Sequence record: LR597660
Source of the DNA: Escherichia phage T4_ev151
Direction: 5' to 3' (one strand)
Length of the DNA stretch: 64,000 nt
Position numbers and translations under genes: made by a program. Positions 2,407 through 62,733 of this stretch are shown here, piece by piece. Positions within the stretch are counted from its first letter, which is position 1; each line of letters starts with the position of its first letter. A model generated the notes under the pieces. The model did no database searches. It saw only the letters and a list, made by a program, of their open reading frames with translations, and was not told the origin of the DNA.

Positions 2407-3411
2407 TTAACTTACCAATTCAATCCAAGCCGGACGAAGTACATCTTGTACCATTTTAACTAATTCCTTTTTAACTAAAGAAGGATTATCTGCTTGAGTT
2501 AGAGTAATACCTTCACGAGAAGTTTCTTCCAAAATATCTTGAACAGTTAGTCCCATCACCTTTCCAAAATCTTTTGGACCAATTTCGCCAATTTTAGAAA
2601 TAACGTTATTTACTCGGTTTAGTGTAACGTAACAAGCTAAAATCCCCACCAATTTGTTATCAGCTTCTGACAGTTCAACTTTAGCTTTAATAAGCTTATC
2701 AGACTTTTTCTTTTCACTAAATTTAGAATTCTTGCATTTGATGGCTACACGATTTCCATTATGAAGCCAAGAAGGATAACAAGGTTTCAATACATATCCT
2801 TCAGCGGTAAATACTTCGCCTTTGGCTTCAGCTTTCCAAACGCATTTATTTGCATCAACTAATCCAGCATGGTCTACTGTAAAATTATAATCTTGGACGA
2901 CAGAATCTAAATCATTTGGCAATTTAATAAGCTCTTCAAATTTACCGCGACCTAAAAGTGGAGCCATTTTAAATTTAAATGTATTGCAGAATGATTCCAT
3001 CATATAATCGTCGACATAAGTCACATCACCACTTTCTGTAGTGACAATAATGTCAAATACATAAAAATCTTTATCACCATAATCAACATTCTTCTGAATG
3101 CCAGGTCCAGCGAATTCGCCAAAGACTTGATAAGATACAACCGCTGAGGTTTCCATAATATTTTGTACTGCTTTAATGGAATCAGCGTAATTCTTTAAAA
3201 TAATTTCATAACCGAAGAAATCTTCAGCAGGAAGAATCGGTCCAGTACGTTTAGCACAAGTTACTTTATCACGCTCAATAATCAATGAGAAATTTGTGCC
3301 GTGAATCTTTTCACGAGCTACCCATTCGCCGCCAGTCAATCCTAAGCTATAAAGTTTTTCAATAAATTTAGAGTTGTAATGATTTTCAAGACTGCTATAC
3401 TTTTTAAACAT
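2407..3411 (-). CDS. rnlB: RNA ligase 2 (Rnl2)
   Basis: 334 aa; N-terminus [21 protein letters not shown] with KxHG nucleotidyltransferase lysine motif; length equals T4 Rnl2. Confidence 0.9.
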
Positions 3412-3990: not shown

Positions 3991-5697
3991 TTATGGATAG
4001 GTATAGATGATACCAGTTTCTAAAGCAGTTTTATGAATGATGTATCCATTACGCGATTCTTGGACATCAACTTCTGGATAATCTTTCATCATCTTCTGGA
4101 GAGTGTAACGATGCAAGTAGTACTTACTATCTGGATCGTCAGTTTTCCAATCTTTACCTTCTTCGGTCATTTTTTGGATTTCATCCATAACCCACCAACC
4201 GCACCAGATATAAGCCGAAGTACGATGTGGAAGAGGATGAACATAAGGCAATTCACCTTCTGGTTCTGGAGCAACTTTATCAGTTACCTGAACTTGACCT
4301 TCTGCTGTGATAGTTTTGCTATCATAATCAGTAGCAGTAACAGTTGCAGTAACTTCAATAGTTTGACTTCCAATAGATGATGTATCAACAGTGTATACAT
4401 TAGTTGACCCTTCTACTGGAGAAGAATCTTTCTTCCATGAATATTCGATTTGTGCTTCTTCTGGAGCATCCGTAACATTAGCAGTAAATGTAGCCGAAGC
4501 ATCTTGCTGAACGTTAATAGAAGGAGGAGTCAATGTAACCCGTGGATTCATTGTTTTCTTATTAACAGTCAATGATACTTCATTAGAAGTAACTTCCTTT
4601 TCATTGTAATTTTCTGCAGTTACTTGCGCTACACACTTAACTGTTTTAGCTCCAACTGTGGTAGGAGTATAGTTAAATGTAGTAGTAGTTTCTCCATCGA
4701 CCAGAGAACCGTCAACATACCACTGATACGTAGCAGACGCTCCTGGTGGCTGTGAAGCCAAGGCAGCAGTAAATTGAACTGGGGTTCCAATTACTGCTGC
4801 AGCAGGATTAGCAGGAGTTACGGCTAACGTAGTTGTCTGTGTTTTCTTATTAACTGTTAATGATACTTCATTAGAAGTAACTGTTTTTGCGTCATAATCT
4901 GTTGCTGTTACTTGGGCTACGCATTTAATTCTTTTAACCCCACTTGTAGTTGGAGTGTAATTGAACGTAGCATTAGTTTCTCCACCAACTTGTGAATCAT
5001 CTACATACCACTGATACGTAGCAGATGCTCCTAGCGGCTGCGAAGCTAAGGCAGCAGTAAATTGAACTGGGGTTCCAATTACTCCTGCTGGAGGACTATC
5101 AGGAGTTACTGCCAAAGTAGTTGTCTGCTCCTTTTTATTAACAGTCAGTGATACTTCATTAGAAGTAACGCTTAGTGCATCATAATCTGTCGCAGTTACT
5201 TGAGCTACACACTTGATTTTTTTAACTCCGCTTGTGTCAGGAGTGTAATTGAATGTAGCGTCAGTTGCTTCGTCTACAGGAGAACCGTCAACGTACCACT
5301 GATATGTGGCGTTTGCGCCAGATGGCTGCGAAGCTAAGGCAGCGGTAAATTCAATTGGAGTTCCAATCACTCCAGCATCAGGGCTACCAGGAGTTACAGC
5401 TAAAGTAGTTGTTTGTGTCTTATTTTGAACTGTGATAGTTGTACTAATTTCAGCTGTTTCAGCTTCACTGTCAGGAACTGGATTTGTTGCAACTACTTTA
5501 ATAGTTTTCTGGCCTGCAGGCCCCTTTAATACATAACTAAAAGTTGCTGACGTTTCTTCCTGTGGAGCACCGTCTACAGTCCAAGCATATGTAATAGGTC
5601 CATCTCCAGTTTGACCACTGGGTGTAGCAGTAAACTGCTGAGTCTGATCTATAACTCCAGTAGGTGTTTTAGGAGTTATATCAACTGTAAAAGTCAT
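3991..5697 (-). CDS. hoc: outer capsid decoration protein Hoc, extended variant with extra Ig-like repeats
   Basis: 568 aa; C-terminal capsid-binding tail (...YIWCGWWVMDEIQKMTEEGKDWKTDDPDSKYYLHRYTLQKMMKDYPEVDVQESRNGYIIHKTALETGIIYTYP) matches recalled T4 Hoc; preceded by repeated ~96-aa Ig-like modules; ATG with AAGGA SD. Confidence 0.85.
   Translation of the reverse strand: MTFTVDITPKTPTGVIDQTQQFTATPSGQTGDGPITYAWTVDGAPQEETSATFSYVLKGPAGQKTIKVVATNPVPDSEAETAEISTTITVQNKTQTTTLAVTPGSPDAGVIGTPIEFTAALASQPSGANATYQWYVDGSPVDEATDATFNYTPDTSGVKKIKCVAQVTATDYDALSVTSNEVSLTVNKKEQTTTLAVTPDSPPAGVIGTPVQFTAALASQPLGASATYQWYVDDSQVGGETNATFNYTPTTSGVKRIKCVAQVTATDYDAKTVTSNEVSLTVNKKTQTTTLAVTPANPAAAVIGTPVQFTAALASQPPGASATYQWYVDGSLVDGETTTTFNYTPTTVGAKTVKCVAQVTAENYNEKEVTSNEVSLTVNKKTMNPRVTLTPPSINVQQDASATFTANVTDAPEEAQIEYSWKKDSSPVEGSTNVYTVDTSSIGSQTIEVTATVTATDYDSKTITAEGQVQVTDKVAPEPEGELPYVHPLPHRTSAYIWCGWWVMDEIQKMTEEGKDWKTDDPDSKYYLHRYTLQKMMKDYPEVDVQESRNGYIIHKTALETGIIYTYP
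4558..5421. repeat. three tandem copies of a ~288-bp unit inside hoc
   Basis: Landmark string cttattaac(a/t)gt(c/t)a(a/g)tgatacttcattagaagtaac recurs at ~4558, ~4846, ~5134 (period 288 bp = 96 codons); protein shows SNEVSLTVNKK...TTLAVTP...ATYQWYVD...IKCVAQVTATDYD repeated. Confidence 0.85.
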
Positions 5698-26435: not shown

Positions 26436-26672
26436 TTATTTACCTATTACAGTTTTAATATGAGTTGTTCCACGTTCTTTAAGGGTGGAAAGTAATTTTT
26501 GGCATTTTTCTAAATCAGATTTCCAACTATATGGTCTATCAATACTAGTCCAATCAGTTTTATAATACTGTTTCCATTTAGAGAAAAAATATTTCTTATA
26601 CTCTACAGCAAACGAGATGTTCTCATTAGAATAAGAACTAATTGCTGTGAGCTTTACCAAACGAAATTTCAT
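26436..26672 (-). CDS. hypothetical protein (T4 31.2 position)
   Basis: 78 aa; start overlaps cd stop (TAATG). Confidence 0.6.
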   Translation of the reverse strand: MKFRLVKLTAISSYSNENISFAVEYKKYFFSKWKQYYKTDWTSIDRPYSWKSDLEKCQKLLSTLKERGTTHIKTVIGK

Positions 26673-27253
26673 TATTCACCACAGAATTCGTTGATATTTT
26701 CCCAGTTTAACTTATTCAAGTTTTTCTTAGGAACATTAAACACTTCAATACCTGCATTTCGCAGAATATCATCCCAGCCAGGTTTATTTTTATCGTATGT
26801 TTCGCAATAAACCAGCTTTTTAATACCAGATTGAGCTATTGCTTTTGCACAATCTGGACAGGGAGAAAGTGTTACATACATAGTAGCACCTTCAATAGAA
26901 GAACCATTTCGTGCAGCAAACAAAATTGCATTTAGTTCAGCATGAATTTCATTTTTAGACGACCATTCAGAGTGAGCGCTACGGTGTTCTTTCGCCAAGA
27001 CAAAACGATCAGTTGAACCAAATGATACACATTCAGGCTTATGACCTTGGATGATAGTGTGTTTAGGCTTATTCAACAACCATCCTTGCTCAGCAGCATA
27101 ATCACAACAGTTCACACCCCCTGCGGGGGAACCATTATACCCAGTAGAAATAATACGTCCATTCTTTTCAATTACTGCTCCTACCTTCCAGGAGCAACAT
27201 TTTGATTCTTGTGATACTAAATATGCAATTTGAAGTACTGTACTCGCTTTCAT
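26672..27253 (-). CDS. cd: dCMP deaminase
   Basis: 193 aa; zinc-binding HAE...PCxxC deaminase motifs (HAELNAILFAAR ... SPCPDCAKAI). Confidence 0.92.
   Translation of the reverse strand: MKASTVLQIAYLVSQESKCCSWKVGAVIEKNGRIISTGYNGSPAGGVNCCDYAAEQGWLLNKPKHTIIQGHKPECVSFGSTDRFVLAKEHRSAHSEWSSKNEIHAELNAILFAARNGSSIEGATMYVTLSPCPDCAKAIAQSGIKKLVYCETYDKNKPGWDDILRNAGIEVFNVPKKNLNKLNWENINEFCGE

Positions 27254-28553: not shown

Positions 28554-28554
<1 letters not shown>
28357..28554 (-). CDS. hypothetical protein (cd.5 position)
   Basis: 65 aa; ATG verified; overlaps pseT stop. Confidence 0.55.
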
Positions 28555-29772
<1,218 letters not shown>

Positions 29773-29776
<4 letters not shown>

Positions 29777-31207: not shown

Positions 31208-32795
<1,588 letters not shown>

Positions 32796-32822: not shown

Positions 32823-34001
32823 TTAAAAGTATTTTTTAAAACTCATCATAACTTTATCATCAACATCATTATCAATCTGTGCAACAAGATAAGATGACAG
32901 TTCTACTTCTTGCGGCGCGGATTGAACATTATCAGAATTAAGGTATTCACGAATCCAAGGATATGGATGTTTAACCGGAGCATCGGTAATCGGGCATGGA
33001 AGACCACACTGTTTCATACGAGATACAGTTAAGTAATCAATAAAGCTCCACATGCTATTTGTATTTAATCCAGGAACATCGCCATCTTTAAATAAATGAA
33101 CTGCCCAATCTTTTTCTTGGCGGTTAACTTCCATGAAAATATCAACTGCTTCTTGTTCACACTCTTTGGCAATTTTAACCCATTCATCGCCATCAGTACC
33201 GGATTGAAGTTGACGAATAATATATTGTGTACCTTTAAGATGAAGCTGCTCATCACGTGCAATAAATTTCATAATCTTCGCATTACCTTCCATGATTTCC
33301 ATGTTCTTATGGAAGTTGAAAGTACATGCAAAGGATACATAAAAACGAATAGCTTCCAGAGCATTGATAACGTGCAGACAGAGATAAAGCGACTTCATCA
33401 GGTCTCGTTTACATTCTTCCAAATGAGTGAGACTGTTTGAATATGCTTCTAAATCATATTCATTTTCAGCAAAATAACTAAAGTTTTCTTTGGCGTTTTC
33501 CCAAATACGTGTCTTGTCCAGAACATCATCATAATAACGACCAATAGATTCAGCACGTTTCATGATAGCTTTATCTAATACAATCTCATCAAATACCTTT
33601 GACGGATCAGTATAAAGATTTCGCATAATATGAGTGTATGAACGACTGTGAATGGTTTCACTAAAAGTCCATGTAGCAACCCATGTATCAAGGCTTGGGT
33701 CTGAAATCAATGACATAAGTACAGCAGACGGTGCACGACCCTGAATGCTATCCAGAAGTGATTGATACTTCAGATTATTAGTAAAAATATTCTGCTGATA
33801 TTGAGGAAGCTTATTAAACTGTGCAGCATCCATCATTAAGTTTACTTCTTCAGGACGCCAGAAAAATGACAACTGCTTTTCGGTTAAATCTTCAAAAACT
33901 TTATGACGTTGAATATCATAACGCGCAATACCAAGACCTGAACCAAAAAACATAGGTTCTTTTAAAACATCAACTGGATTTGTATTAAAAACTGTAGACA
34001 T
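32823..34001 (-). CDS. nrdB: ribonucleotide reductase small subunit NrdB (uninterrupted)
   Basis: ATG at 34001 with AGAGGA SD gives 392 aa MSTVFNTNPVDV...; one continuous ORF, no intron; start overlaps mobE stop (TAATG). Confidence 0.92.
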   Translation of the reverse strand: MSTVFNTNPVDVLKEPMFFGSGLGIARYDIQRHKVFEDLTEKQLSFFWRPEEVNLMMDAAQFNKLPQYQQNIFTNNLKYQSLLDSIQGRAPSAVLMSLISDPSLDTWVATWTFSETIHSRSYTHIMRNLYTDPSKVFDEIVLDKAIMKRAESIGRYYDDVLDKTRIWENAKENFSYFAENEYDLEAYSNSLTHLEECKRDLMKSLYLCLHVINALEAIRFYVSFACTFNFHKNMEIMEGNAKIMKFIARDEQLHLKGTQYIIRQLQSGTDGDEWVKIAKECEQEAVDIFMEVNRQEKDWAVHLFKDGDVPGLNTNSMWSFIDYLTVSRMKQCGLPCPITDAPVKHPYPWIREYLNSDNVQSAPQEVELSSYLVAQIDNDVDDKVMMSFKKYF

Positions 34002-34732
34002 TAATTTTTCCTCTTTAAAATTCTGCCGCGTTTCCAACCTGGCGGTATAATATCATCTTTACCTATAAGCGTGCATTCACTTCCATTATTAATCCATTTC
34101 TTACCGCGGATTCCTTTATAATCTCTTGGTTGTATTTTATCAAACTTTGCATCAAGTTGATATGACCATCTAAATCCATAGGCATATTGAAATTTACCCT
34201 CAGCACAATATTTGATATTTGACCCGTTTCCATTAACTGACCTGGACGCTGCCGCAATAGAGTGAAAGGTTTCTATGAAATCCCCATCTAATGAGAATTT
34301 ATGTATTTCGATAGATGGGCATGCATACCTATTCACGTTTGATACATGTTGTTTAGTTTCGTTTTTATGATGCTTGCCTAACATTCCTCTAGGATGAGGA
34401 TTATTTTTCCAATATTTCTTAAAGAAATCAGAATTAGCTTTAGCAAATAATTTTCTGTGCAAGCTATACAATCTGTTATTAATTCTATTACCAGCTTTAT
34501 CTGTTACCATTAACGTTAACGCAGAGGCAAGCCCAAAATGGCCTTCATTTATCTTACATAGTAATAGATGCGCTATAAAATGTTCTCTAGCTGTTAATTC
34601 AACTAAATTTTCTTTATCATCAGAACCTCCCATGCATTTAGGGACTATATGATGTGTCTCTTTATATTCAGATAAAGGTTCCCGAGCCTGAGCTCGGGAA
34701 ATTAGGTCATTATAGATTTTTTGATAATTCAT
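34001..34732 (-). CDS. mobE: free-standing HNH homing endonuclease
   Basis: 243 aa; HNH motif (HHIVPKCMGGSDDKENLVELTAREHFIAH); C-terminal IPPGWKRG DNA-binding-like motif; TAATG overlaps with nrdA stop and nrdB start. Confidence 0.8.
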   Translation of the reverse strand: MNYQKIYNDLISRAQAREPLSEYKETHHIVPKCMGGSDDKENLVELTAREHFIAHLLLCKINEGHFGLASALTLMVTDKAGNRINNRLYSLHRKLFAKANSDFFKKYWKNNPHPRGMLGKHHKNETKQHVSNVNRYACPSIEIHKFSLDGDFIETFHSIAAASRSVNGNGSNIKYCAEGKFQYAYGFRWSYQLDAKFDKIQPRDYKGIRGKKWINNGSECTLIGKDDIIPPGWKRGRILKRKN

Positions 34733-37865: not shown

Positions 37866-38881
37866 CATTATGTTCAGATAAGGTCGTTAATCTTACCCCG
37901 GAATTATATCCAGCTGCATGTCACCATGCAGATCAGACTATATCTCCAACTTGTTAAAGCAAGTTGTCTATCGTTTCGAGTCACTTGACCCTACTCCCCA
38001 AAGGGATAGTCGTTAGGCATTTATGTAGAACCAATTCCATTTATCAGATTTTACACGATAAGTAACTAATCCAGACGAAATTTTAAAATGTCTAGCTGCA
38101 TCTGCTGCACAATCAAAAATAACCCCATCACATGAAATCTTTTTAATATTACTAGGCTTTTTACCTTTCATCTTTTCTGATATTTTAGATTTAGTTATGT
38201 CTGAATGCTTATGATTAAAGAATGAATTATTTTCACCTGAACGATTTCTGCATTTACTACAAGTATAAGCAGAAGTTTGTATGCGAACACCGCACTTACA
38301 AAACTTATGGGTTTCTGGATTCCAACGCCCGTTTTTACTTCCGGGTTTACTGTAAAGAGCTTTCCGACCATCAGGTCCAAGTTTAAGCATCTTAGCTTTA
38401 ACAGTTTCAGAACGTTTCTTAATAATTTCTTCTTTTAATGGATGCGTAGAACATGTATCACCAAACGTTGCATCAGCAATATTGTATCCATTAATTTTAG
38501 AATTAAGCTCTTTAATCCAAAAATTTTCTCGTTCAATAATCAAATCTTTCTCATATGGAATTTCTTCCAAAATAGAACATTCAAACACATTACCATGTTT
38601 GTTAAAAGACCTCTGAAGCTTTATAGAAGAATGGCATCCTTTTTCTAAATCTTTAAAATGCCTCTTCCATCTCTTTTCAAAATCTTTAGCACTTCCTACA
38701 TATACTTTATTGTTTAAAGTATTTTTAATCTGATAAATTCCGCTTTTCATAAATACCTCTTTAAATATAGAAGTATTTATTAAAGGGCAGTCCTACAATT
38801 TAGCACGGGATTGTCTACTAGAGAGGTTCCCCGTTTAGATAGATTACAAGTATAAGTCACCTTATACTCAGGCCTCAATTA
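37866..38881 (-). mobile_element. group I self-splicing intron in td (1016 nt) carrying I-TevI
   Basis: Exon 1 frame hits UAA at the first intron codon (...VDVFLG then UAAUUGAGGCCUGAGUAUAAGGUG...); 1016 nt, the length I recall for the T4 td intron. Confidence 0.9.
38013..38750 (-). CDS. I-TevI: intron-encoded GIY-YIG homing endonuclease I-TevI
   Basis: 245 aa MKSGIYQIKNTLNNKVYVGSAKDFEKRWKRHFKDLEKGCHSSIKLQRSFNKHGNVFECSILEEIPYEKDLIIERENFWIKELNSKINGYNI... matches recalled I-TevI. Confidence 0.95.
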   Translation of the reverse strand: MKSGIYQIKNTLNNKVYVGSAKDFEKRWKRHFKDLEKGCHSSIKLQRSFNKHGNVFECSILEEIPYEKDLIIERENFWIKELNSKINGYNIADATFGDTCSTHPLKEEIIKKRSETVKAKMLKLGPDGRKALYSKPGSKNGRWNPETHKFCKCGVRIQTSAYTCSKCRNRSGENNSFFNHKHSDITKSKISEKMKGKKPSNIKKISCDGVIFDCAADAARHFKISSGLVTYRVKSDKWNWFYINA

Positions 38882-42775: not shown

Positions 42776-42874
42776 TTTTATTTCCTTTTTAATTTAATTA
42801 ACAGTTGGTGCTATGACGATGTATGACCTCATAGCTGGTCAGTGAGATAATTATAATCTATTTATAATAAGCAA

Positions 42875-50861: not shown

Positions 50862-53800
50862 ATGGCTACTTTAAAACAAATACAATTTAAAAGAAGCAAA
50901 ACTGCAGGAGCACGTCCTGCCGCTTCAGTATTAGCCGAAGGTGAATTGGCTATAAACTTAAAAGACCGTGTACTTTTTACTAAAGATGACCAAGGAAATA
51001 TTATTGATCTGGGTTTTGCTAAAGGCGGTAGTATTGACGGGAATGTTATTCATACAGGCAATTATAACCAAACTGGCGATTATATTTTAAATGGTGTCTT
51101 CACTCAGACTGGTAATTTTAATTTAACCGGTATTGCTCGAGTAACTCGCGATATTATTGCCGCTGGGCAGATTATGACTGAAGGCGGAGAACTTATTACA
51201 AAAAGTTCAGGTACAGCGCATGTTCGTTTTTTCGATAACAATAGTCGCGAACGCGGAATCATTTATGCCCCGGCTAATGATGGTTTAACTACACAAGTAC
51301 TTAATATCAGGGTTCAAGACTACGCCGCTGGTAGCGAAAGCACTTATGCATTTTCAGGCAGTGGACTATTTACTTCACCTGAAGTATCAGCATGGAAATC
51401 TATTTCGTCTCCACAAATTCTAACCAACAAAGTCATTACTAATAATAAATCTACGGGTGATTATGACATCTATTCGATGGCAGACAATGTTCCATTGTCT
51501 GAAAGCACTACTGCTATTAATCATCTTCGTGTCATGCGTAATGCCGTTGGTTCTGGTATTTTCCATGAAGTTAAAGATAATGATGGAATAACTTGGTATG
51601 CAGGTGATGGACTTGACACCTATCTTTGGTCATTTACTTGGAGCGGCGGAATTAAATCAAGTCACTCAATTTCTATTGGTTTAACACCTGGTAATAAAGA
51701 TTATTCAATATTAGGACCATCTAGTATTGCTTTAGGAGATAATGATACTGGATTTAAATGGCATCAAGATGGATATTATTTTAGCGTTAATAATGGAACA
51801 AAAACGTTTTTATTTAGTCCTAGCGAAACAACTAGCCTAAGAAAATTTGTAGCTGGATATTCTACTAACGGAACCGATTTAACTACTCCTCCAACTGAAA
51901 ACTATGCTCTCGCTACTGTCGTGACATATCACGATAATAACGCGTTTGGAGATGGTCAGACTCTTTTAGGATATTATCAAGGCGGTAACTATCATCATTA
52001 TTTCCGCGGCAAGGGTACCACAAACATTAATACTCACGGCGGTTTGTTAGTTACTCCTGGTAATATTGACGTTATTGGTGGTTCTGTTAATATCGATGGT
52101 AGAAATAATGCTTCTACACTGATGTTTAGAGGTAACACAACTGGTAGCAGTTCAGTTGATAATATGACAATTTCCGTGTGGGGTAATACCTTTACTAATC
52201 CTAGCGAAGGCACCCGTAAAAATGTCATGGAAATTTCTGACGCAACTAGTTGGATGAGCTATATTCAACGAACAACTGCAGGTAAAGTCGAATCGGTTAT
52301 AAATGGCACCCAGATTGTTAATGAAAACTTGACAGTAGTAAAAAATGCTACATTTGACGGTACAATCAGCGCAGCCGGTGAAATCGCGACAAATGCTGTA
52401 AATGGTCTTCGCATTTGGAACGCAGATTATGGAGCTATTTTTAGACGTTCAGAAGGAAGTCTTCATATTATTCCAACTGCTTACGGTGAAGGTAAATATG
52501 GCGATATCGGTCCACTTCGCCCGTTTAGTATGGCTTTAGATACTGGTAAAGTTACTATTCCAGATTTACAATCAAGTTACAATACGTTCGCTGCTAACGG
52601 TTATATTAAATTTGTTGGTCATGGAGCGGGTGCCGGCGGTTATGACATTCAATATGTTCAAGCGGCTCCTATTTTCCAGGAAATCGATGATGATGCTGTA
52701 AGCAAATATTATCCTATTGTTAAACAGAAGTTTCTAAACGGTAAATCCGTTTGGTCTTTAGGTACTGAAATTAATTCGGGTACATTGGTTATTCATCATC
52801 TGAAAGAAGATGGATCACAAGGCCATACGTCTCGTTTTAATCAAGACGGTACTGTTAACTTCCCTGATAACGTTCAGGTCGGCGGCGGTGAAGCTACTAT
52901 TGCTCGTAATGGTAATATTTTCTCGGATATTTGGAAATCGTTCACTTCAGCAGGAGACACTACAAATATTCGTGACGCAATAGCTACCCGTGTTGCCAAA
53001 GAAGGTGATACGATGACCGGCAAGTTGATTATTAGAAGAGATTCTGACGCTATTAACTTAGCTGCGCCTTCAGCAACTGATGCAAGTTACCTTCTTTCTA
53101 CTGGCGGTGGAGAAAATCAATGGTATATTGGTAAAGGCGGCGCTGATAATACTGTATCATTCTACAACTATAAAACCAACGGGGCTGTGCAAATTAACTC
53201 TATTGGTGAAATCGCGCTGATTCCACAAGGTGCTGCAACATTTAACTTTAACCGCGATCGTCTCCATATAAATGGGACTCAATGGACTGCACATCAAGCT
53301 GGTGACTGGGGTAACCAATGGCGTCAAGAAGCTCCTATATTTGTGGATTTTGGTAGTGTCGGTAATGATAGTTATTATCCTATTATTAAAGGAAAATCTG
53401 TTATTACGAATGAAGGATACGTATCTGGTGTTGATTTCGGTATGCGACGCATTCCTAATAACTGGGCTCAGGCTATTATCCGTGTTGGTAACCAGGAAAA
53501 TGCTAGCGATCCGCAAGCTATCTTCGAATTCCACTATAATGGAAACATGTACGTTCCTGACATGGTTAAAGCTGGAGTAAGAATATCAGCTGGTGGAGGT
53601 GACCCTGTATGGACAGGCGCATGTGTTGTTATTGGTGATAATGATACCGGATTAGTTCATGGTGGTGACGGCCGAATCAATATGGTTGCAAATGGAATGC
53701 ATATTGCTTCATGGTCGTCCGCTTACCATCTCCATGAAGGTCTTTGGGATACCACTGGTGCTTTGTGGACTGAACAAGGAAGAGCTATTATTTCTTTTGG

Positions 53801-54194
53801 TCATTTAGTCCAACAGAGCGATGCCTATTCCACATTTGTTCGAGATGTTTATGTCCGTTCTGATATTCGTGTTAAAAAAGACCTTGTTAAATTTGAAAAT
53901 GCTTCTGAGAAGCTTTCCAAAATTAACGGTTACACTTATATGCAGAAGCGAGGCCTAGATGAAGAAGGCAATCAGAAATGGGAACCTAACGCCGGTTTAA
54001 TTGCTCAAGAAGTTCAAGCTATTTTACCAGAATTAGTTGAAGGTGACCCTGATGGCGAAGCTTTACTTCGTTTGAACTATAACGGTATAATTGGTTTAAA
54101 TACAGCTGCAATCAATGAGCATACTGCAGAAATTGCAGAACTTAAATCAGAAATCGAAGAACTTAAAGCATTAGTTAAATCATTGTTAAAATAA
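50862..54194 (+). CDS. 37: long tail fibre distal subunit gp37 with C-terminal intramolecular-chaperone-like domain
   Basis: 1110 aa versus 1026 aa recalled for T4; the C-terminal ~111 aa begin SDIRVKKDL and end in a coiled coil ([22 protein letters not shown]). Confidence 0.88.
53859..54191 (+). other. putative auto-cleaved intramolecular chaperone domain of gp37
   Basis: S-D-x-R-x-K motif at residue 1000 (SDIRVKK), resembling the cleavage/catalytic motif of phage fibre and endosialidase chaperone domains; assignment from memory. Confidence 0.55.
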
Positions 54195-54198
54195 TAAG

Positions 54199-54214
54199 AG
54201 GGGCTTCGGCCCCT
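54199..54214. terminator. stem-loop between genes 37 and 38
   Basis: AGGGGC-TTCG-GCCCCT hairpin immediately after the gene 37 stop and just upstream of the GGAGG SD of gene 38. Confidence 0.45.
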
Positions 54215-54225
54215 TGGAGGTTTAT

Positions 54226-55002
54226 ATGGCAGTAGCAGGACCGTGGATAGGAACTTCTGCATTGGCACAGACTGGAGACCATTGGATGGCAGGAGCAGCC
54301 GCAAGATTAAGAATGGGCGTTCCGTTTTGGATGAGTAATATGATAGGTCGATCTGTTGAAGTAATTCACACGCTTGGAGCAGACCATAACTTCAATGGTC
54401 AATGGTTCCGAGATAGATGTTTTGAGGCAGGTAGTGCACCTATAGTGTTTAATATCACTGGAGATTTAGTATCATATTCTAAAGATGTTCCTTTATTCTT
54501 CATGTATGGAGATACACCGAATGAATATGTTCAGTTGAATATACACGGCGTAACGATGTATGGACGTGGCGGTAATGGCGGTAGCAATAGTCCTGGCTCA
54601 GCTGGAGGTCATTGTATTCAAAACGATATTGGTGGGAGACTAAGAATCAATAATGGCGGAGCTATTGCAGGCGGCGGTGGCGGCGGTGGCGGCGGATATT
54701 ATTCTCCTTTTTCACAAATGAGATTGACCTTTGGTGGTGGTGGCGGTCGTCCTTTTGGTGCGCCAGGCGGATCTATTGATATGCAATCAGGCGCAACTGC
54801 TGGTACTATTTCTGCGCCTGGCGCAGGGTCTGTGAACGGTATCTATAATGGCGGGAATGGTGGTGAAGTTGGCTCCGCAGGAGGTAGATGCAATATTCGC
54901 GGTCAAGGATCTGAATATAATGGCGGCGATGCTGGTTATGCTGTTATAGGGTCTGCTCCAACGTGGATAAATGTTGGAGCAATATATGGTCCAAGAGTAT
55001 AA
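54226..55002 (+). CDS. 38: T2/T6-type tail-fibre adhesin gp38 with glycine-rich motifs
   Basis: Track starts at TTG 54214; ATG at 54226 follows GGAGG; 258 aa with glycine-rich segments ([61 protein letters not shown]) separated by variable segments. Confidence 0.8.
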
Positions 55003-55032
55003 TTTGAATAAATATCCTTAAAAGGAGGGTCT

Positions 55033-58278: not shown

Positions 58279-59603
58279 TTTATTTCCTCTAAATCTTTGG
58301 TGTATTCTGTAACTACATCAGTAGTTTTCCAATATTCGTTTTCTTCTTTTTTAGCTTTAGCTTCTTCAGCAAGTTTCTTTGCTTCATCGGAAGTCATATG
58401 AAAAATATTCATTCCAACCAGTTTATCAACATAAGAAGAATACATATCGATTTTCGAAAGTTCTTCGGTCAGTTCTTTACGAGTTTTACCTTGTACAACA
58501 ATTTCACCTGAAATTACTTTCTTAATGAAATGTGCCTTGGCAAAGGCTAAACGAAAAGCTGATTCAGTTTCTTTAATTTTGTTATCAATTCGTTTTTGAA
58601 CATAAGTTTTACGAACTTCAACAAAGTCTTTAATTAAATCAACTACGTTATCGTAAACTTGTAGTTTTCCTTTCTCATTAATAACCGTAATATTCTGAGA
58701 ACGACGCTCAATCAACCCGAAGTCTTTCATAATTTTTGCATGACGTTCTTCTTCATTATCGCTCAAAGAATATTCTTTGCGGAATTTAACTTTGAATCCA
58801 AAACCGTGCTCACCGCAAGCATCATCCCATGTAATGAAGCCTTTATCTTCAAGTGGGTCTAAGATTTTACTCACGTAAGTTTCACGATCATACTTATACG
58901 GAATCTCAGTGATATGCATTTGAGTTCGTGAAGTAAACTTATATGTTCCACGAATTTCATACTGCCCATCAATTTCAACAACTTCACCACGAAATTCTGG
59001 GAATTCTACCTTCGGTTTAGTTACTTTCTTTCCTTGAAGAGCTTGCAGTACAGCTTTCCTGACAGAAGAAACACTATGAGGAAGAATGTAAGTTGCATAA
59101 CCAGTTGCAATACCGGAAACACCATTAAGAAGAACAGTAGGAATAATAGGCAAATAGAAAGCAGGCGGAATGTGTTCTTTATCTTGATGTACCGGAGCAT
59201 ATTCAGTATCTTTATATACGTTATAGAAATTTTTACTTACACGAGCAAAAATATAACGACTTGCCGCTGCTTTTTGAACGGTACGAGAACCAAAGTTTCC
59301 TTGACCATCTAACAAAGGAAAGTTATTATTCCAAGTGTTAGCCATCAAAGCTCCCGCATCTTGCGCAGAGTTTTCACCATGATGATATCCAAGGTCCGCT
59401 ACACCACCTGCAATAGAAGCGAGTTTGTGAAACTTATCTTTATTCCCTCGTGCCAAATCAAGAGCTCGAGCAATAACAAATCGTTGAACTGGCTTAAATC
59501 CATCAATCATATTTGGAATAGCACGATTTTCAACCGTGTACATAGCATAAGCCAATGCTTCATTATCAATGATACTTTTTAAATCGCGATTATTCAGTTG
59601 CAT
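58275..59603 (-). CDS. 52: DNA topoisomerase II medium subunit gp52
   Basis: 442 aa (T4 gp52 length); topoisomerase A-subunit-like N-terminal region (..PNMIDGFKPVQRF..). Confidence 0.92.
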   Translation of the reverse strand: MQLNNRDLKSIIDNEALAYAMYTVENRAIPNMIDGFKPVQRFVIARALDLARGNKDKFHKLASIAGGVADLGYHHGENSAQDAGALMANTWNNNFPLLDGQGNFGSRTVQKAAASRYIFARVSKNFYNVYKDTEYAPVHQDKEHIPPAFYLPIIPTVLLNGVSGIATGYATYILPHSVSSVRKAVLQALQGKKVTKPKVEFPEFRGEVVEIDGQYEIRGTYKFTSRTQMHITEIPYKYDRETYVSKILDPLEDKGFITWDDACGEHGFGFKVKFRKEYSLSDNEEERHAKIMKDFGLIERRSQNITVINEKGKLQVYDNVVDLIKDFVEVRKTYVQKRIDNKIKETESAFRLAFAKAHFIKKVISGEIVVQGKTRKELTEELSKIDMYSSYVDKLVGMNIFHMTSDEAKKLAEEAKAKKEENEYWKTTDVVTEYTKDLEEIK

Positions 59604-59740
59604 AAATTTACCATACTAGTGAATGTAGTGCCATAATAACATCAGAAATGAAAAGCACGACTTGAATTAATCCGAACATTACTCCATAATATAGTGCTAC
59701 CAATAAAGTAGCAAGGGCTAATGAATAGCCCAAGATTTTC

Positions 59741-59899
59741 TTAATCATTAGTAGATAACAACACAAATGTTAAATATGCACACATACCCTGGGCTAAAGC
59801 CTGCGAAAACACACTGCTAGCATCGATACAGATAGTTAAAACACATGCTACTATCCAACAAATAAATGAAATAACTCCTAATAATTTTGCAATATTCAT
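59741..59899 (-). CDS. 52-aa membrane micro-protein (T4 ac/52.1-like)
   Basis: Track starts at TTG; ATG at 59899 with GAGGAG SD; MNIAKLLGVISFICWIVACVLTICIDASSVFSQALAQGMCAYLTFVLLSTND. Confidence 0.5.
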   Translation of the reverse strand: MNIAKLLGVISFICWIVACVLTICIDASSVFSQALAQGMCAYLTFVLLSTND

Positions 59900-59909
59900 A
59901 ATATTCTCC

Positions 59910-60065
59910 TCAACTATTTTTAGAACCAATGTACGCGAATAATGATAAAATCGCTAATACGCCCTGAGCTGATGCTTGCAAAAATACTGAAGTTTCTCCA
60001 GTTATTACCGTTCCGGCGAATAAAAAGGACCAACAGAAAAAAGTTATACCATAAACAAGTTTCAT
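59910..60065 (-). CDS. 51-aa membrane micro-protein, paralogue of the preceding ORF (T4 ac-like)
   Basis: Hand-translated MKLVYGITFFCWSFLFAGTVITGETSVFLQASAQGVLAILSLFAYIGSKNS; shares the ...SVF.QA.AQG... core with the downstream ORF. Confidence 0.5.
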   Translation of the reverse strand: MKLVYGITFFCWSFLFAGTVITGETSVFLQASAQGVLAILSLFAYIGSKNS

Positions 60066-60072
60066 ATTTTCC

Positions 60073-60153
60073 TCACTGGCGTCCGAAGACGCCTTTAGTT
60101 TTAAGATTGTTACGATAGAACTGCATCACATGTTCGTTATGGAAATTACTCAT
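60073..60153 (-). CDS. stp: Stp peptide (anticodon-nuclease PrrC activator)
   Basis: Hand-translated 26 aa [26 protein letters not shown] matches recalled T4 Stp; ATG overlaps the ndd stop (TAATG). Confidence 0.85.
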
Positions 60154-60608
60154 TAATATGCCTGCAAAACAAATTTAAAGTTATCAGCCAACATACGGTT
60201 CATTTCTTCAAGTGTTTGATACTCAGAATGATGATTACGAGTAAATGCCAAAGCTAACTGACCTTTACCAAATCCTGTCGTCAGAGGTTTCATCTTAGAA
60301 GCAGGCAGATAAAACACTGTATATGGAACATTGTTATTTGCAATAGTACGCGCAAGCTGAGACCGGCGTTGACGAATATGACTTAAAACCGCACTGAATC
60401 CTTGCTTAGAACGCTGATTACCTACATAAAATCGTGCAGATACGCATGGACTACTAAATGGACCACCGAGTTTACTCACTAAAAAGTAAAATCCAGGTTT
60501 AGACAAAATGTCTTTATGCGGGGTTCCCAAAAACCATTCACCACCCTTAATTGTACCAATAACGGTAGCGCCTGCATTGTTCAGATCAGTAACAGTCATA
60601 TATTTCAT
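60153..60608 (-). CDS. ndd: nucleoid disruption protein Ndd
   Basis: Track starts at GTG 60656; ATG at 60608 gives 151 aa [52 protein letters not shown]... Confidence 0.9.
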
Positions 60609-60668
60609 ATTAATTTCCTCTAAATTATTTTCTACTCCATGGCCGCATGAATACACACGGCCATTAAA

Positions 60669-60884
60669 TTAATCGTCGCAGTCGACGCTCAATTCCCAAA
60701 ACTCTTCTACAGTATAAGTTTCAGTATCATTTTCAATACAGAAACGTTCATTACTGTTATTTGCTAAAGTAGCATTAACTGTCATTTTCTCGCTGGTGCT
60801 CTTAAGAGGTGAAATACGAATTAACTGATCACCGTTATCTAAACAAAAAATTTCACCAACTTTTACATCTTTAAAACTTTTCAT
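60669..60884 (-). CDS. hypothetical protein (ndd.1 position)
   Basis: 71 aa; ATG with GAGG SD. Confidence 0.55.
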   Translation of the reverse strand: MKSFKDVKVGEIFCLDNGDQLIRISPLKSTSEKMTVNATLANNSNERFCIENDTETYTVEEFWELSVDCDD

Positions 60885-60892
60885 AATTCACC

Positions 60893-61003
60893 TCAAGGAG
60901 TATAAAATCCAAATGCAGTTGTTGACCATCCCATCCAATATGGGAAATTTGCACCAATGTAAAACATAAGAATATAAAACCAACCACTCAGCAAATTCAT
61001 CAT
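60893..61003 (-). CDS. 36-aa hydrophobic micro-protein
   Basis: Hand-translated MMNLLSGWFYILMFYIGANFPYWMGWSTTAFGFYTP; ATG overlaps the upstream stop (ATGA). Confidence 0.4.
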   Translation of the reverse strand: MMNLLSGWFYILMFYIGANFPYWMGWSTTAFGFYTP

Positions 61004-61197
61004 TTTACACCATTCCAAATTGTTTCAACTACGGATTTTAAACCATTCTGATGAATATCCATTCCGACTACCGCCATCAAATAGATTCCAACTACAACTG
61101 AACCTAAGGCAAAAATCAGCATGAAAATGAATAAAGCCGGAAAAATATTATCGAAAAACCATTCAATAAATGTAAAAGCACTGCGTTTACGCTTCAT
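61000..61197 (-). CDS. 65-aa membrane protein
   Basis: Track starts at TTG; ATG at 61197 with GAGGAA SD; MKRKRSAFTFIEWFFDNIFPALFIFMLIFALGSVVVGIYLMAVVGMD... Confidence 0.5.
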   Translation of the reverse strand: MKRKRSAFTFIEWFFDNIFPALFIFMLIFALGSVVVGIYLMAVVGMDIHQNGLKSVVETIWNGVK

Positions 61198-61204
61198 ATT
61201 TTCC

Positions 61205-61318
61205 TCACATAAATCCAAAGTAAACGTTTAATACATCAATCATTAAAACGATTGGGAATATACTCAAAACTATTAGTATTATAACTACATTCCATATAGC
61301 TTTAACAATCTTTTTCAT
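61205..61318 (-). CDS. 37-aa membrane micro-protein
   Basis: ATG at 61318 preceded by GGAGGA; MKKIVKAIWNVVIILIVLSIFPIVLMIDVLNVYFGFM; the longer track ORF (to 61453) would run through a promoter. Confidence 0.45.
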   Translation of the reverse strand: MKKIVKAIWNVVIILIVLSIFPIVLMIDVLNVYFGFM

Positions 61319-61346
61319 TTTGTGTTCCTCCGTAGTTGATAGGGTA

Positions 61347-61376
61347 ATAGTACCACGGAGGAACAGTCTTGTAAAC
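61347..61376 (-). promoter_or_regulatory. early promoter (GTTTAC, 18 nt, TGGTACTAT) with inverted repeat reaching the downstream SD
   Basis: - strand GTTTACAAGACTGTTCCTCCGTGGTACTATTAC; 9-bp arms TTCCTCCGT (61324-61332) and ACGGAGGAA (61356-61364). Confidence 0.5.
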
Positions 61377-61383
61377 AACTTTT

Positions 61384-61482
61384 TTAAAAATATTCGTAAT
61401 AAATGTGAATACCAACTACTACCGCTGAAACCTGTGCAACCCACCATGCACACGCAATAAGTACAGAATTCAAAATTTTCAT
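61384..61482 (-). CDS. 32-aa hydrophobic micro-protein
   Basis: Hand-translated MKILNSVLIACAWWVAQVSAVVVGIHIYYEYF; GAGG SD; ATG overlaps the upstream stop (ATGA). Confidence 0.4.
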   Translation of the reverse strand: MKILNSVLIACAWWVAQVSAVVVGIHIYYEYF

Positions 61483-61565
61483 AATAACCTCATCACAAAA
61501 GTAAATGTTAAACAAATTACTGGAATACTAATTAACCAAACAAAACACCACCATAATGAACTCAT
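61479..61565 (-). CDS. 28-aa hydrophobic micro-protein
   Basis: Hand-translated MSSLWWCFVWLISIPVICLTFTFVMRLL; ATG overlaps the upstream stop (ATGA). Confidence 0.4.
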   Translation of the reverse strand: MSSLWWCFVWLISIPVICLTFTFVMRLL

Positions 61566-61825
61566 AGTTCAATCTCAACGATTTCCAAGTGTTTTTGTTT
61601 TATTGCCTTTTTAACACAATCATGGACTAAATATGACCATGAATCATTATATTCTCCATTAACTAATCGTTGGAGATCTTCACGTGATGATAAGTAAGGT
61701 TGATCTGATTCCCATTTTGATAAAAATACTGCAGTAAAAATATCTCCTTCATCTGTAGTTGAAGTCGTAAATGCAATAAATTCACCGGTAATTTTATGTT
61801 TAGCGTAATAAAATTTAAATTTCAT
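61562..61825 (-). CDS. hypothetical protein
   Basis: ATG at 61825 preceded by GGAGGAG gives ~87 aa MKFKFYYAKHKITGEFIAFTTSTTDEGDIF...; an early promoter lies just upstream. Confidence 0.55.
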   Translation of the reverse strand: MKFKFYYAKHKITGEFIAFTTSTTDEGDIFTAVFLSKWESDQPYLSSREDLQRLVNGEYNDSWSYLVHDCVKKAIKQKHLEIVEIEL

Positions 61826-61898
61826 TTTTACTCCTCCGTAGCTGATAGTTGTATAGTACCACAGTCCTTGTGGTATGTAAACCATTTTGTGAAATTTT

Positions 61899-62456
61899 TT
61901 AAATGGAAAGATACCATCCGTTGTAGTTGCTTTTTCTTACAACCTTACGAAGGTCTTCTCTATCACCGATGAACTTCGGAGTGTACTGGATGACACCTGG
62001 ATGAATTTCTTTAGTGTTGAATATAATTATACAGTCAGCGACTTGATGATTTAGAATGGGCCCTAGATTTATTCCAGAACCATATGGATACTCTCCGCTG
62101 CATCCTGTTGTTACAGAAATCCAACGTGAGTCAGTTTGGTGTGTCTTAACTTCTACACGAAGCCCACAGTATCTTGGATGTGCCAAAACATCCCATGCAT
62201 ATGTGTACGGATCATCGACATCTTCTTGACCTTTATTGACATATCCGCTTAGCCAATCTGCCACAAAAAACTCTGCGTACACAGCGATACGGCATCTTTC
62301 GATAACTTCTGCCTTATCCTGATTTGGGTTTTGTTTTAAAGAGTATCTTGCAGTATCAGCAATTTTGACCTTCATTTCACTAGTCAAGTCACTGTTCGAT
62401 AGGGTAAATGTCGGAATCTGAAATAGTCTCTGCAAACCCGGATTCGTTTTCTGCAT
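61899..62456 (-). CDS. denB: endonuclease IV (DenB)
   Basis: 185 aa (T4 DenB length); position between ndd block and rIIB; ATG verified. Confidence 0.8.
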   Translation of the reverse strand: MQKTNPGLQRLFQIPTFTLSNSDLTSEMKVKIADTARYSLKQNPNQDKAEVIERCRIAVYAEFFVADWLSGYVNKGQEDVDDPYTYAWDVLAHPRYCGLRVEVKTHQTDSRWISVTTGCSGEYPYGSGINLGPILNHQVADCIIIFNTKEIHPGVIQYTPKFIGDREDLRKVVRKSNYNGWYLSI

Positions 62457-62538
62457 TTAAACTTTCCTTTATGTCGGAATCACTGATATTCATATAAATC
62501 ATAATTTCTCTTAAAACAAAAGGGCCGAAGCCCTTATT

Positions 62539-62733
62539 TTATTTGAATTGTGCAATTCTTTTCTCTAGACATTCAGCATAAGATTTCATTGAGATGAACT
62601 GTGAAAGTAGCAGTTCTTGCTCAACTGCACTAACTGTTAGAAACTTTGCGCTTTCTAAAAATTTGCTCAGTGCATTAATTTTGAGCATTAATTGATCGTA
62701 TTCTTCTTTTACTCGTGCTTGATAACCTAACAT
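62539..62733 (-). CDS. hypothetical protein flanked by two near-identical hairpins
   Basis: 64 aa; ATG with AAGGAAA SD. Confidence 0.5.
   Translation of the reverse strand: MLGYQARVKEEYDQLMLKINALSKFLESAKFLTVSAVEQELLLSQFISMKSYAECLEKRIAQFK

Follow-up and report, generated by a model that had tools for sequence, protein, structure and literature searches.

The stp gene and accompanying tRNA-repair enzymes in the T4-like genome of Escherichia phage T4_ev151

The 64,000-nucleotide stretch of Escherichia phage T4_ev151 analyzed here (record LR597660; hereafter the window) carries, on the minus strand at 60073..60153, a 26-codon reading frame which, judged by comparison with T4, is almost certainly the stp gene of a T4-like (Tequatrovirus) genome and belongs to the phage arm of the prr circuit. 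The interplay of Stp, PrrC, Pnkp and Rnl1 is the founding case both of defence by the sensing of an anti-restriction factor and of the repair, by a phage, of the tRNA damage that follows. The stp gene and RNA-repair set described here are already known T4 biology in one more T4-like genome; the intact module confirms its high conservation only and brings no new biology.

In the published model, Stp inhibits the type Ic restriction enzyme EcoprrI, latent PrrC becomes active, and Pnk and Rnl1 repair the cleaved tRNA-Lys (PMC3014915, PMC1484252, PMC12707154, PMC12409349). On prr+ E. coli, T4 is restricted when pnk or rnlA is mutated, the stp locus is defined by suppressor mutations, and it is on prr+ hosts that the genetics of stp, pseT and rnlA were defined (PMC3014915). 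Stp relieves restriction by both EcoprrI and EcoR124I (type Ic) with modification unaffected, EcoR124I being a system without PrrC, and Stp made from a plasmid suffices for activity (PMC3014915). Loss-of-function stp suppressors cluster at residues 4-14, and removal of the 8 C-terminal codons reduces activity only moderately, which leaves the N-proximal 18 residues as the functional core (PMC3014915). For its activation PrrC further requires dTTP, hydrolysis of GTP and DNA with unmodified EcoprrI targets (PMC3014915, PMC1484252, PMC12707154), the role of dTTP being documented in two of these sources (PMC1484252, PMC12707154). The prr locus itself is optional and sporadic among bacteria (PMC1484252). 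How Stp inhibits EcoprrI was still described as unknown in a 2025 review (PMC12707154), and no structure of Stp bound to EcoprrI or PrrC was found in the literature search.

Identity and setting of stp

The gene is defined as follows.

stp, 60073..60153, minus strand: 26-aa peptide and TGA stop codon; identical to T4 Stp, PF08133, phrog_6763

The original prediction recognized this frame as T4 Stp but did not state its strand. The minus-strand translation is identical to T4 Stp (NC_000866 165505..165585; NP_049878) over 26/26 residues, or 100%, and the DNA differs from that of T4 at one of 81 bases, a synonymous change at His8 (CAT versus CAC). Translation of 60073-60153 on the plus strand is meaningless. 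The peptide matches PF08133, the anticodon nuclease activator family, along profile positions 1-26 of 26 with 75.3 bits (E 2e-21) against a gathering cut-off of 25 bits, and it also matches phrog_6763 (E 4.4e-21). Divergence of Stp that would abolish its activity, which the original prediction had named as one ground for doubt, was not found: comparison with T4 Stp shows the N-proximal 18-residue core intact, including residues 4-14. Peptides at least 99% identical to it occur in 422 of 817 matching phage records.

The T-even setting of the gene has also been kept. By the T4 annotation, blastn and the protein identities of Ndd, Ac and 52.1, stp directly follows ndd and precedes ac, 52.1 and gene 52, and the order ndd-stp-ac-52.1-52 is the same as in T4. 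The minus-strand region 3′ of stp holds two paralogous membrane ORFs of 51 and 52 aa (59910-60065 and 59741-59899) of the ac (acridine resistance) family, phrog_2501. The window thus has two copies of this family versus one in T4, and the copy directly after stp is identical to T4 Ac at 19/51 residues. On the other side of stp, a 107-aa minus-strand ORF (61562-61885, phrog_2390) lies between the ndd.x genes and denB; the segment 61588-61834, which holds this ORF region, has no T4 counterpart.

The ndd-stp junction and the hairpin within stp

Three features of the minus strand describe the junction and the 3′ part of stp.

ndd, 60153..60608, minus strand: nucleoid disruption protein, 151 aa; PF06591, E 2.3e-91; 149/151 identical to T4 Ndd
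TAATG junction, 60151..60155, minus strand: ndd stop and stp start sharing one A
Hairpin, 60078..60093, minus strand: GGCGUC-UUCG-GACGCC tetraloop with a 6-bp stem, within stp codons 21-26

The stop codon of ndd (TAA, 60155..60153) overlaps the start codon of stp (ATG, 60153..60151), and the same junction is found in T4. The original prediction described stp as translationally coupled to ndd through TAATG; the overlap is real and can be read directly from the sequence, while coupling is a step beyond it. Ahead of the stp ATG there is only a weak CAGG motif resembling a Shine-Dalgarno sequence, and translation of stp probably falls to ribosomes that have just finished ndd at the overlapping stop codon. 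The stp homologues of siphoviruses differ in this respect, as they have a GGAG or GAGG Shine-Dalgarno sequence of their own and no overlap with ndd.

The hairpin in the last codons of stp is locally stable (−11.5 kcal/mol, z −3.25) and ends 4 nt ahead of the GAGG and ATG of the next, ac-like gene. It is identical in T4, is found in VR7 with the stem kept and a UUUG loop, and is missing from T2, K1ind2 and Rtp. Over the window, CTTCGG sites are over-represented (32 versus 13.6 ± 3.8 expected). The 161-nt ndd/stp/ac junction as a whole folds no better than shuffled sequences (z −0.67), and an Rfam scan at gathering thresholds returned zero matches. Read on the plus strand, the stp hairpin precedes a T-rich run, and a scan marked it as terminator-like. 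A promoter scan of 59400-62600 gave 14 sites versus 13.9 expected, with no excess over chance.

RNA-repair enzymes

The window encodes a polynucleotide kinase/phosphatase and two RNA ligases, all on the minus strand.

pseT/pnk, 28554..29459, minus strand: polynucleotide 5′-kinase/3′-phosphatase, 301 aa from the first ATG; PF13671 and PF25109; PDB 1LTQ
rnlA, 31208..32332, minus strand: RNA ligase 1, 374 aa; PF09511 and PF20819; PDB 2C5U, E 5e-254
rnlB, 2407..3411, minus strand: RNA ligase 2, 334 aa; PF09414 and PF18043; PDB 2HVQ, E 1.7e-223

The original prediction had located pnk and rnlA correctly. Pnkp, whose T4-equivalent ATG is at 29456, matches PDB 1LTQ with E 3.6e-187 and is identical to the T4 protein at 274/301 residues (91%). 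Its AAA_33 kinase domain with the P-loop (PF13671) covers residues 6-148 and its HAD_PNKP phosphatase domain (PF25109) residues 159-301. The catalytic residues checked, chosen after structural work on T4 Pnkp, are kept in 12/12 cases (K15, S16, D35, R38, R126, D165, D167, R176, R213, D254, D277 and D278). Differences from T4 are unevenly distributed: 20 of the 27, including a one-residue deletion, are crowded into one part of the kinase domain (T4 residues 55-109), and the phosphatase domain is nearly identical. This patch looks like a mosaic or recombinant segment, and the catalytic residues are unaffected by it. Between pseT.1 and pseT, a 106-aa minus-strand ORF absent from T4 has been inserted (29456-29776), its TGA stop and the pnk start sharing bases in ATGATGA. 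The ORF is a member of phrog_2364 and adjoins pseT in 708 phage records. A Pfam scan of this ORF and of the 107-aa ORF near ndd gave no match, and both match only PHROGs to which no function is assigned.

Rnl1 is even closer to its T4 equivalent, with 370/374 residues identical, the motif I lysine K99 (KEDG), E159, E227, K240 and K242 kept, and the Rnl1-specific C-terminal domain (PF20819) present beside the nucleotidyltransferase domain (PF09511). Rnl2, which the original prediction added to the repair arm without giving its position, is indeed present (328/334 residues identical to T4; K35 conserved along with every other residue checked; Rnl2 nucleotidyltransferase and C-terminal domains both recognized), but no evidence was found for a role of this ligase in the circuit or in the repair of PrrC-cut tRNA-Lys. 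T4 rnlA mutants are restricted on prr+ hosts (PMC3014915) though T4 carries rnlB, which argues that Rnl2 is no substitute for Rnl1.

Proposed working of the circuit in this phage

What has been published on T4 Stp can be carried over directly to this peptide, as the two are identical. The claim of the original prediction that Stp inhibits EcoprrI and thereby releases latent PrrC agrees with the published T4/prr model (PMC3014915, PMC1484252, PMC12707154) and, by sequence identity, would extend to this phage. The N-proximal 18 residues of Stp would act on EcoprrI, EcoR124I and similar type Ic complexes, whose cleavage of DNA would be blocked and whose methylation would be spared. In the rare hosts with prrC in a type Ic locus, this disturbance would unmask PrrC in combination with GTP hydrolysis, dTTP and the binding of unmodified target DNA; PrrC would then cut tRNA-Lys 5′ of the wobble base to leave a 2′,3′-cyclic phosphate and a 5′-OH. 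Pnkp (28554..29459) would then heal the tRNA-Lys ends and Rnl1 (31208..32332) seal them, so that infection proceeds. All the phage parts are present in the window, in their T4 positions, with high sequence identity to T4 and with their catalytic residues intact; that the biochemical steps established for T4 also operate in this phage is what this identity suggests. Nothing in the sequence contradicts the reading of these genes as the phage side of the prr circuit.

The original prediction went further and called both trigger and repair arms of the circuit complete. This holds on the phage side only, since the remaining part, prr, belongs to the host, where it is optional, and does not occur in the window. 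The phage may also contribute to the activation of PrrC by another route, through the genes of its dTMP pathway (cd, td, frd and nrdAB in the window), which may feed the rise in dTTP that co-activates PrrC. The first of these is given here.

cd, 26672..27253, minus strand: dCMP deaminase; 192/193 identical to T4 Cd

A tRNA scan of the window found no tRNA gene, and there is therefore no bypass by a phage tRNA-Lys within the window. One consideration counts against the prr reading as the best explanation. The DNA of T-even phages carries glucosyl-hydroxymethylcytosine and is largely immune to type I restriction, so that the retention of Stp in a phage with modified DNA is left unexplained by the prr model.

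Stp homologues and their distribution

Stp homologues above the PF08133 cut-off are found in siphoviruses of ~45-50 kb, namely Rtp (rtp6), U136B (U136B_009), P818, STGO-35-1 and K1ind2. The phages and loci concerned are the following.

Rtp, U136B and P818: Drexlerviridae
STGO-35-1: Caminolopintovirus
K1ind2: Kagunavirus
K1ind2 stp, NC_041898 40077..40154 (L003 1501-1578): unannotated ORF
P818 stp, L008 1501-1578: unannotated ORF
Rtp stp/phosphatase pair: L002 495-1034 and 1483-1575
U136B stp/phosphatase pair: L006 1501-1581 and 2151-2714
Other T1-like loci with stp and a HAD phosphatase: L032, L040, L048, L050, L051, L053, L055, L056, L058, L059, L061-L063 and L070

Nine positions are invariant among eight Stp sequences, drawn from T4-like phages and siphoviruses (M1, S2, H5, N6, H8, M10, Q11, R14 and K18), and the sequences diverge past residue 18, with a family core of the form S-x-[FWH]-H-N-[EG]-H-[VI]-M-Q-[FWL]-[YH]-R-x-x-[LI]-K. 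The weakest tblastn and Pfam matches reach residues 1-18 or 1-19 only. This conserved core, residues 2-18, coincides with the region of the suppressor mutations. T4 Stp and the peptide of K1ind2 are 92% identical, and between K1ind2 and the window codons 2-18 show 8 synonymous and 0 amino-acid changes, that is, 8 of the 17 core codons differ synonymously. On this comparison of sequences, it is the stp peptide on which selection acts.

The surroundings of stp were explored by scanning IMG/VR with the Stp alignment, which returned 60 loci, and by examining 10 kb around stp in each. A Pnkp kinase domain, Rnl1 or Rnl2 was found within this distance at 0/60 loci. A stand-alone HAD phosphatase does lie 0.5-1.3 kb from stp in 15 T1-like contigs, including Rtp; this phosphatase is related to the phosphatase domain of Pnkp. 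The genes of Rtp and U136B named ‘polynucleotide kinase’ encode the HAD phosphatase domain only, without a kinase domain, and no RNA ligase is listed in the full Rtp annotation. Stp travels without a linked repair arm in these siphoviruses, which fits anti-restriction as its primary role. The full set of trigger and repair genes was found here only in T-even phages.

What Stp is kept for

These distributions bear on a reading in which Stp is kept mainly for a role outside prr, be it general anti-restriction against type Ic enzymes or action on another host target. The retention of Pnkp and Rnl1 would in the same way be due mainly to other tasks, for instance the healing of RNA ends in mRNA decay and tail-fibre attachment, and the PrrC circuit would be an occasional side effect in rare hosts. 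Such a reading would account for Stp homologues above the PF08133 cut-off in small siphoviruses, for the lack of Pnkp kinase, Rnl1 and Rnl2 within 10 kb of stp in IMG/VR, and for the ligase-free annotation of Rtp and the phosphatase-only ‘kinases’ of Rtp and U136B. It is also in line with the inhibition of EcoR124I, which has no PrrC (PMC3014915), with the sporadic occurrence of PrrC in bacteria (PMC1484252), with the processing of RegB-cut mRNA by Pnk (PMC3014915) and with the annotation of T4 rnlA as a tail-fibre attachment catalyst. However, a role of this kind complements the prr circuit and does not exclude it, the genetics of the three genes come from prr+ hosts (PMC3014915), and no second target of Stp was found in the literature searched. 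As the main reason for keeping the module it is a real but doubtful possibility.

Two further readings would take the peptide itself out of consideration. That the conserved element is an RNA, either the CUUCGG hairpin or a coupling signal for the ac-like gene, with the ORF incidental, draws on the position of a stable UUCG hairpin in codons 21-26, with the ribosome-binding site of the next gene immediately after it, and on the excess of CTTCGG in the window. The hairpin, however, is confined to the C-terminal codons, a part that Stp can lose and still function. In distant phages the N-terminal core has many synonymous changes and yet its amino acids are conserved; the peptide is present and the hairpin absent in T2, K1ind2 and Rtp, plasmid-expressed Stp is sufficient (PMC3014915), and the 161-nt region does not fold better than its shuffles. 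An RNA element is highly improbable on these grounds and is effectively refuted as a sole explanation. The notion of a chance, unexpressed open frame in AT-rich DNA starts from the abundance of short ORFs: a 3.5-kb stretch here has 50 with 20 aa or more, and a frame of 26 codons is unremarkable in itself. Yet this frame encodes the exact peptide of the experimentally characterized T4 Stp and shows a pattern of purifying selection, and the PF08133 and phrog_6763 matches and the exact T4 synteny exclude chance, the probability of which is negligible. The reading of 60073..60153 as stp, acting in the prr circuit, is therefore preferred.

A further reading may be put forward as an unlikely speculation: that the host target of Stp is broader than, or different from, EcoprrI, and that the dispensable C-terminal codons may in addition have been recruited in the T4 lineage as the CUUCGG hairpin. 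A broader target would explain why Stp is retained under strict purifying selection in a T-even phage with modified DNA, and why it also occurs in small siphoviruses in which a search near stp revealed no repair arm. If this were true, the CUUCGG hairpin would stabilize the ndd-stp transcript or tune translation of the ac-like gene.

The window compared with the T4 genome

The window and T4 105,501..168,903 are collinear, and beyond this the window continues into the beginning of the T4 map; nucleotide identity by blastn is 93-97.5%. The best public matches to two searched regions, ECML-134, wV7 and EC121, are ~97% identical. T4 and the window have different sets of homing endonucleases, the sites concerned being 1022-1081, 33328-34732 and 42838-42874: segD and segG are absent, no I-TevIII intron interrupts nrdB, and the place of nrdB.1/mobE is taken by an endonuclease of the HNH/NUMOD1 type (34001..34732, minus strand). 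The I-TevI ORF is retained at 38013..38750. Surface proteins also differ. Hoc (3991-5697, minus strand) has 568 aa with extra Ig/PKD repeats, versus 376 aa in T4. The distal tail fibre region (50862-55002, plus strand) is T2-like, with a gp38 of the PF05268 adhesin type and a C-terminal Peptidase_S74 chaperone domain in gp37; no T4 match was found for 51029-55007.

Comparison with known systems

The closest system is that of T4 itself, in which stp has the same position between ndd and ac, the same TAATG overlap and the same internal CUUCGG hairpin as in the window. The order of the repair region, cd...pseT...alc-rnlA-denA, is likewise that of T4, and the T4 repair pair Pnkp/Rnl1 has the same domain architecture and checked catalytic residues as the window proteins. 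A difference lies 3′ of the gene, as T4 is without the extra ac-like paralogue (59910..60065) that directly follows stp in the window. Siphovirus homologues share the core of the T4 and window peptide but have different C-termini. Outside the Stp family, the logic of the circuit is shared by T7 Ocr with PARIS or Ronin, defences of the decoy or guard kind set off by an anti-restriction protein, where the host senses the inhibition of restriction and responds by abortive infection. The inhibitors are of different kinds, since Ocr is a DNA mimic whereas Stp has only 26 residues and acts specifically on type Ic enzymes, and, in contrast to the case of Ocr with PARIS or Ronin, T4-like phages carry the repair enzymes that undo the damage.
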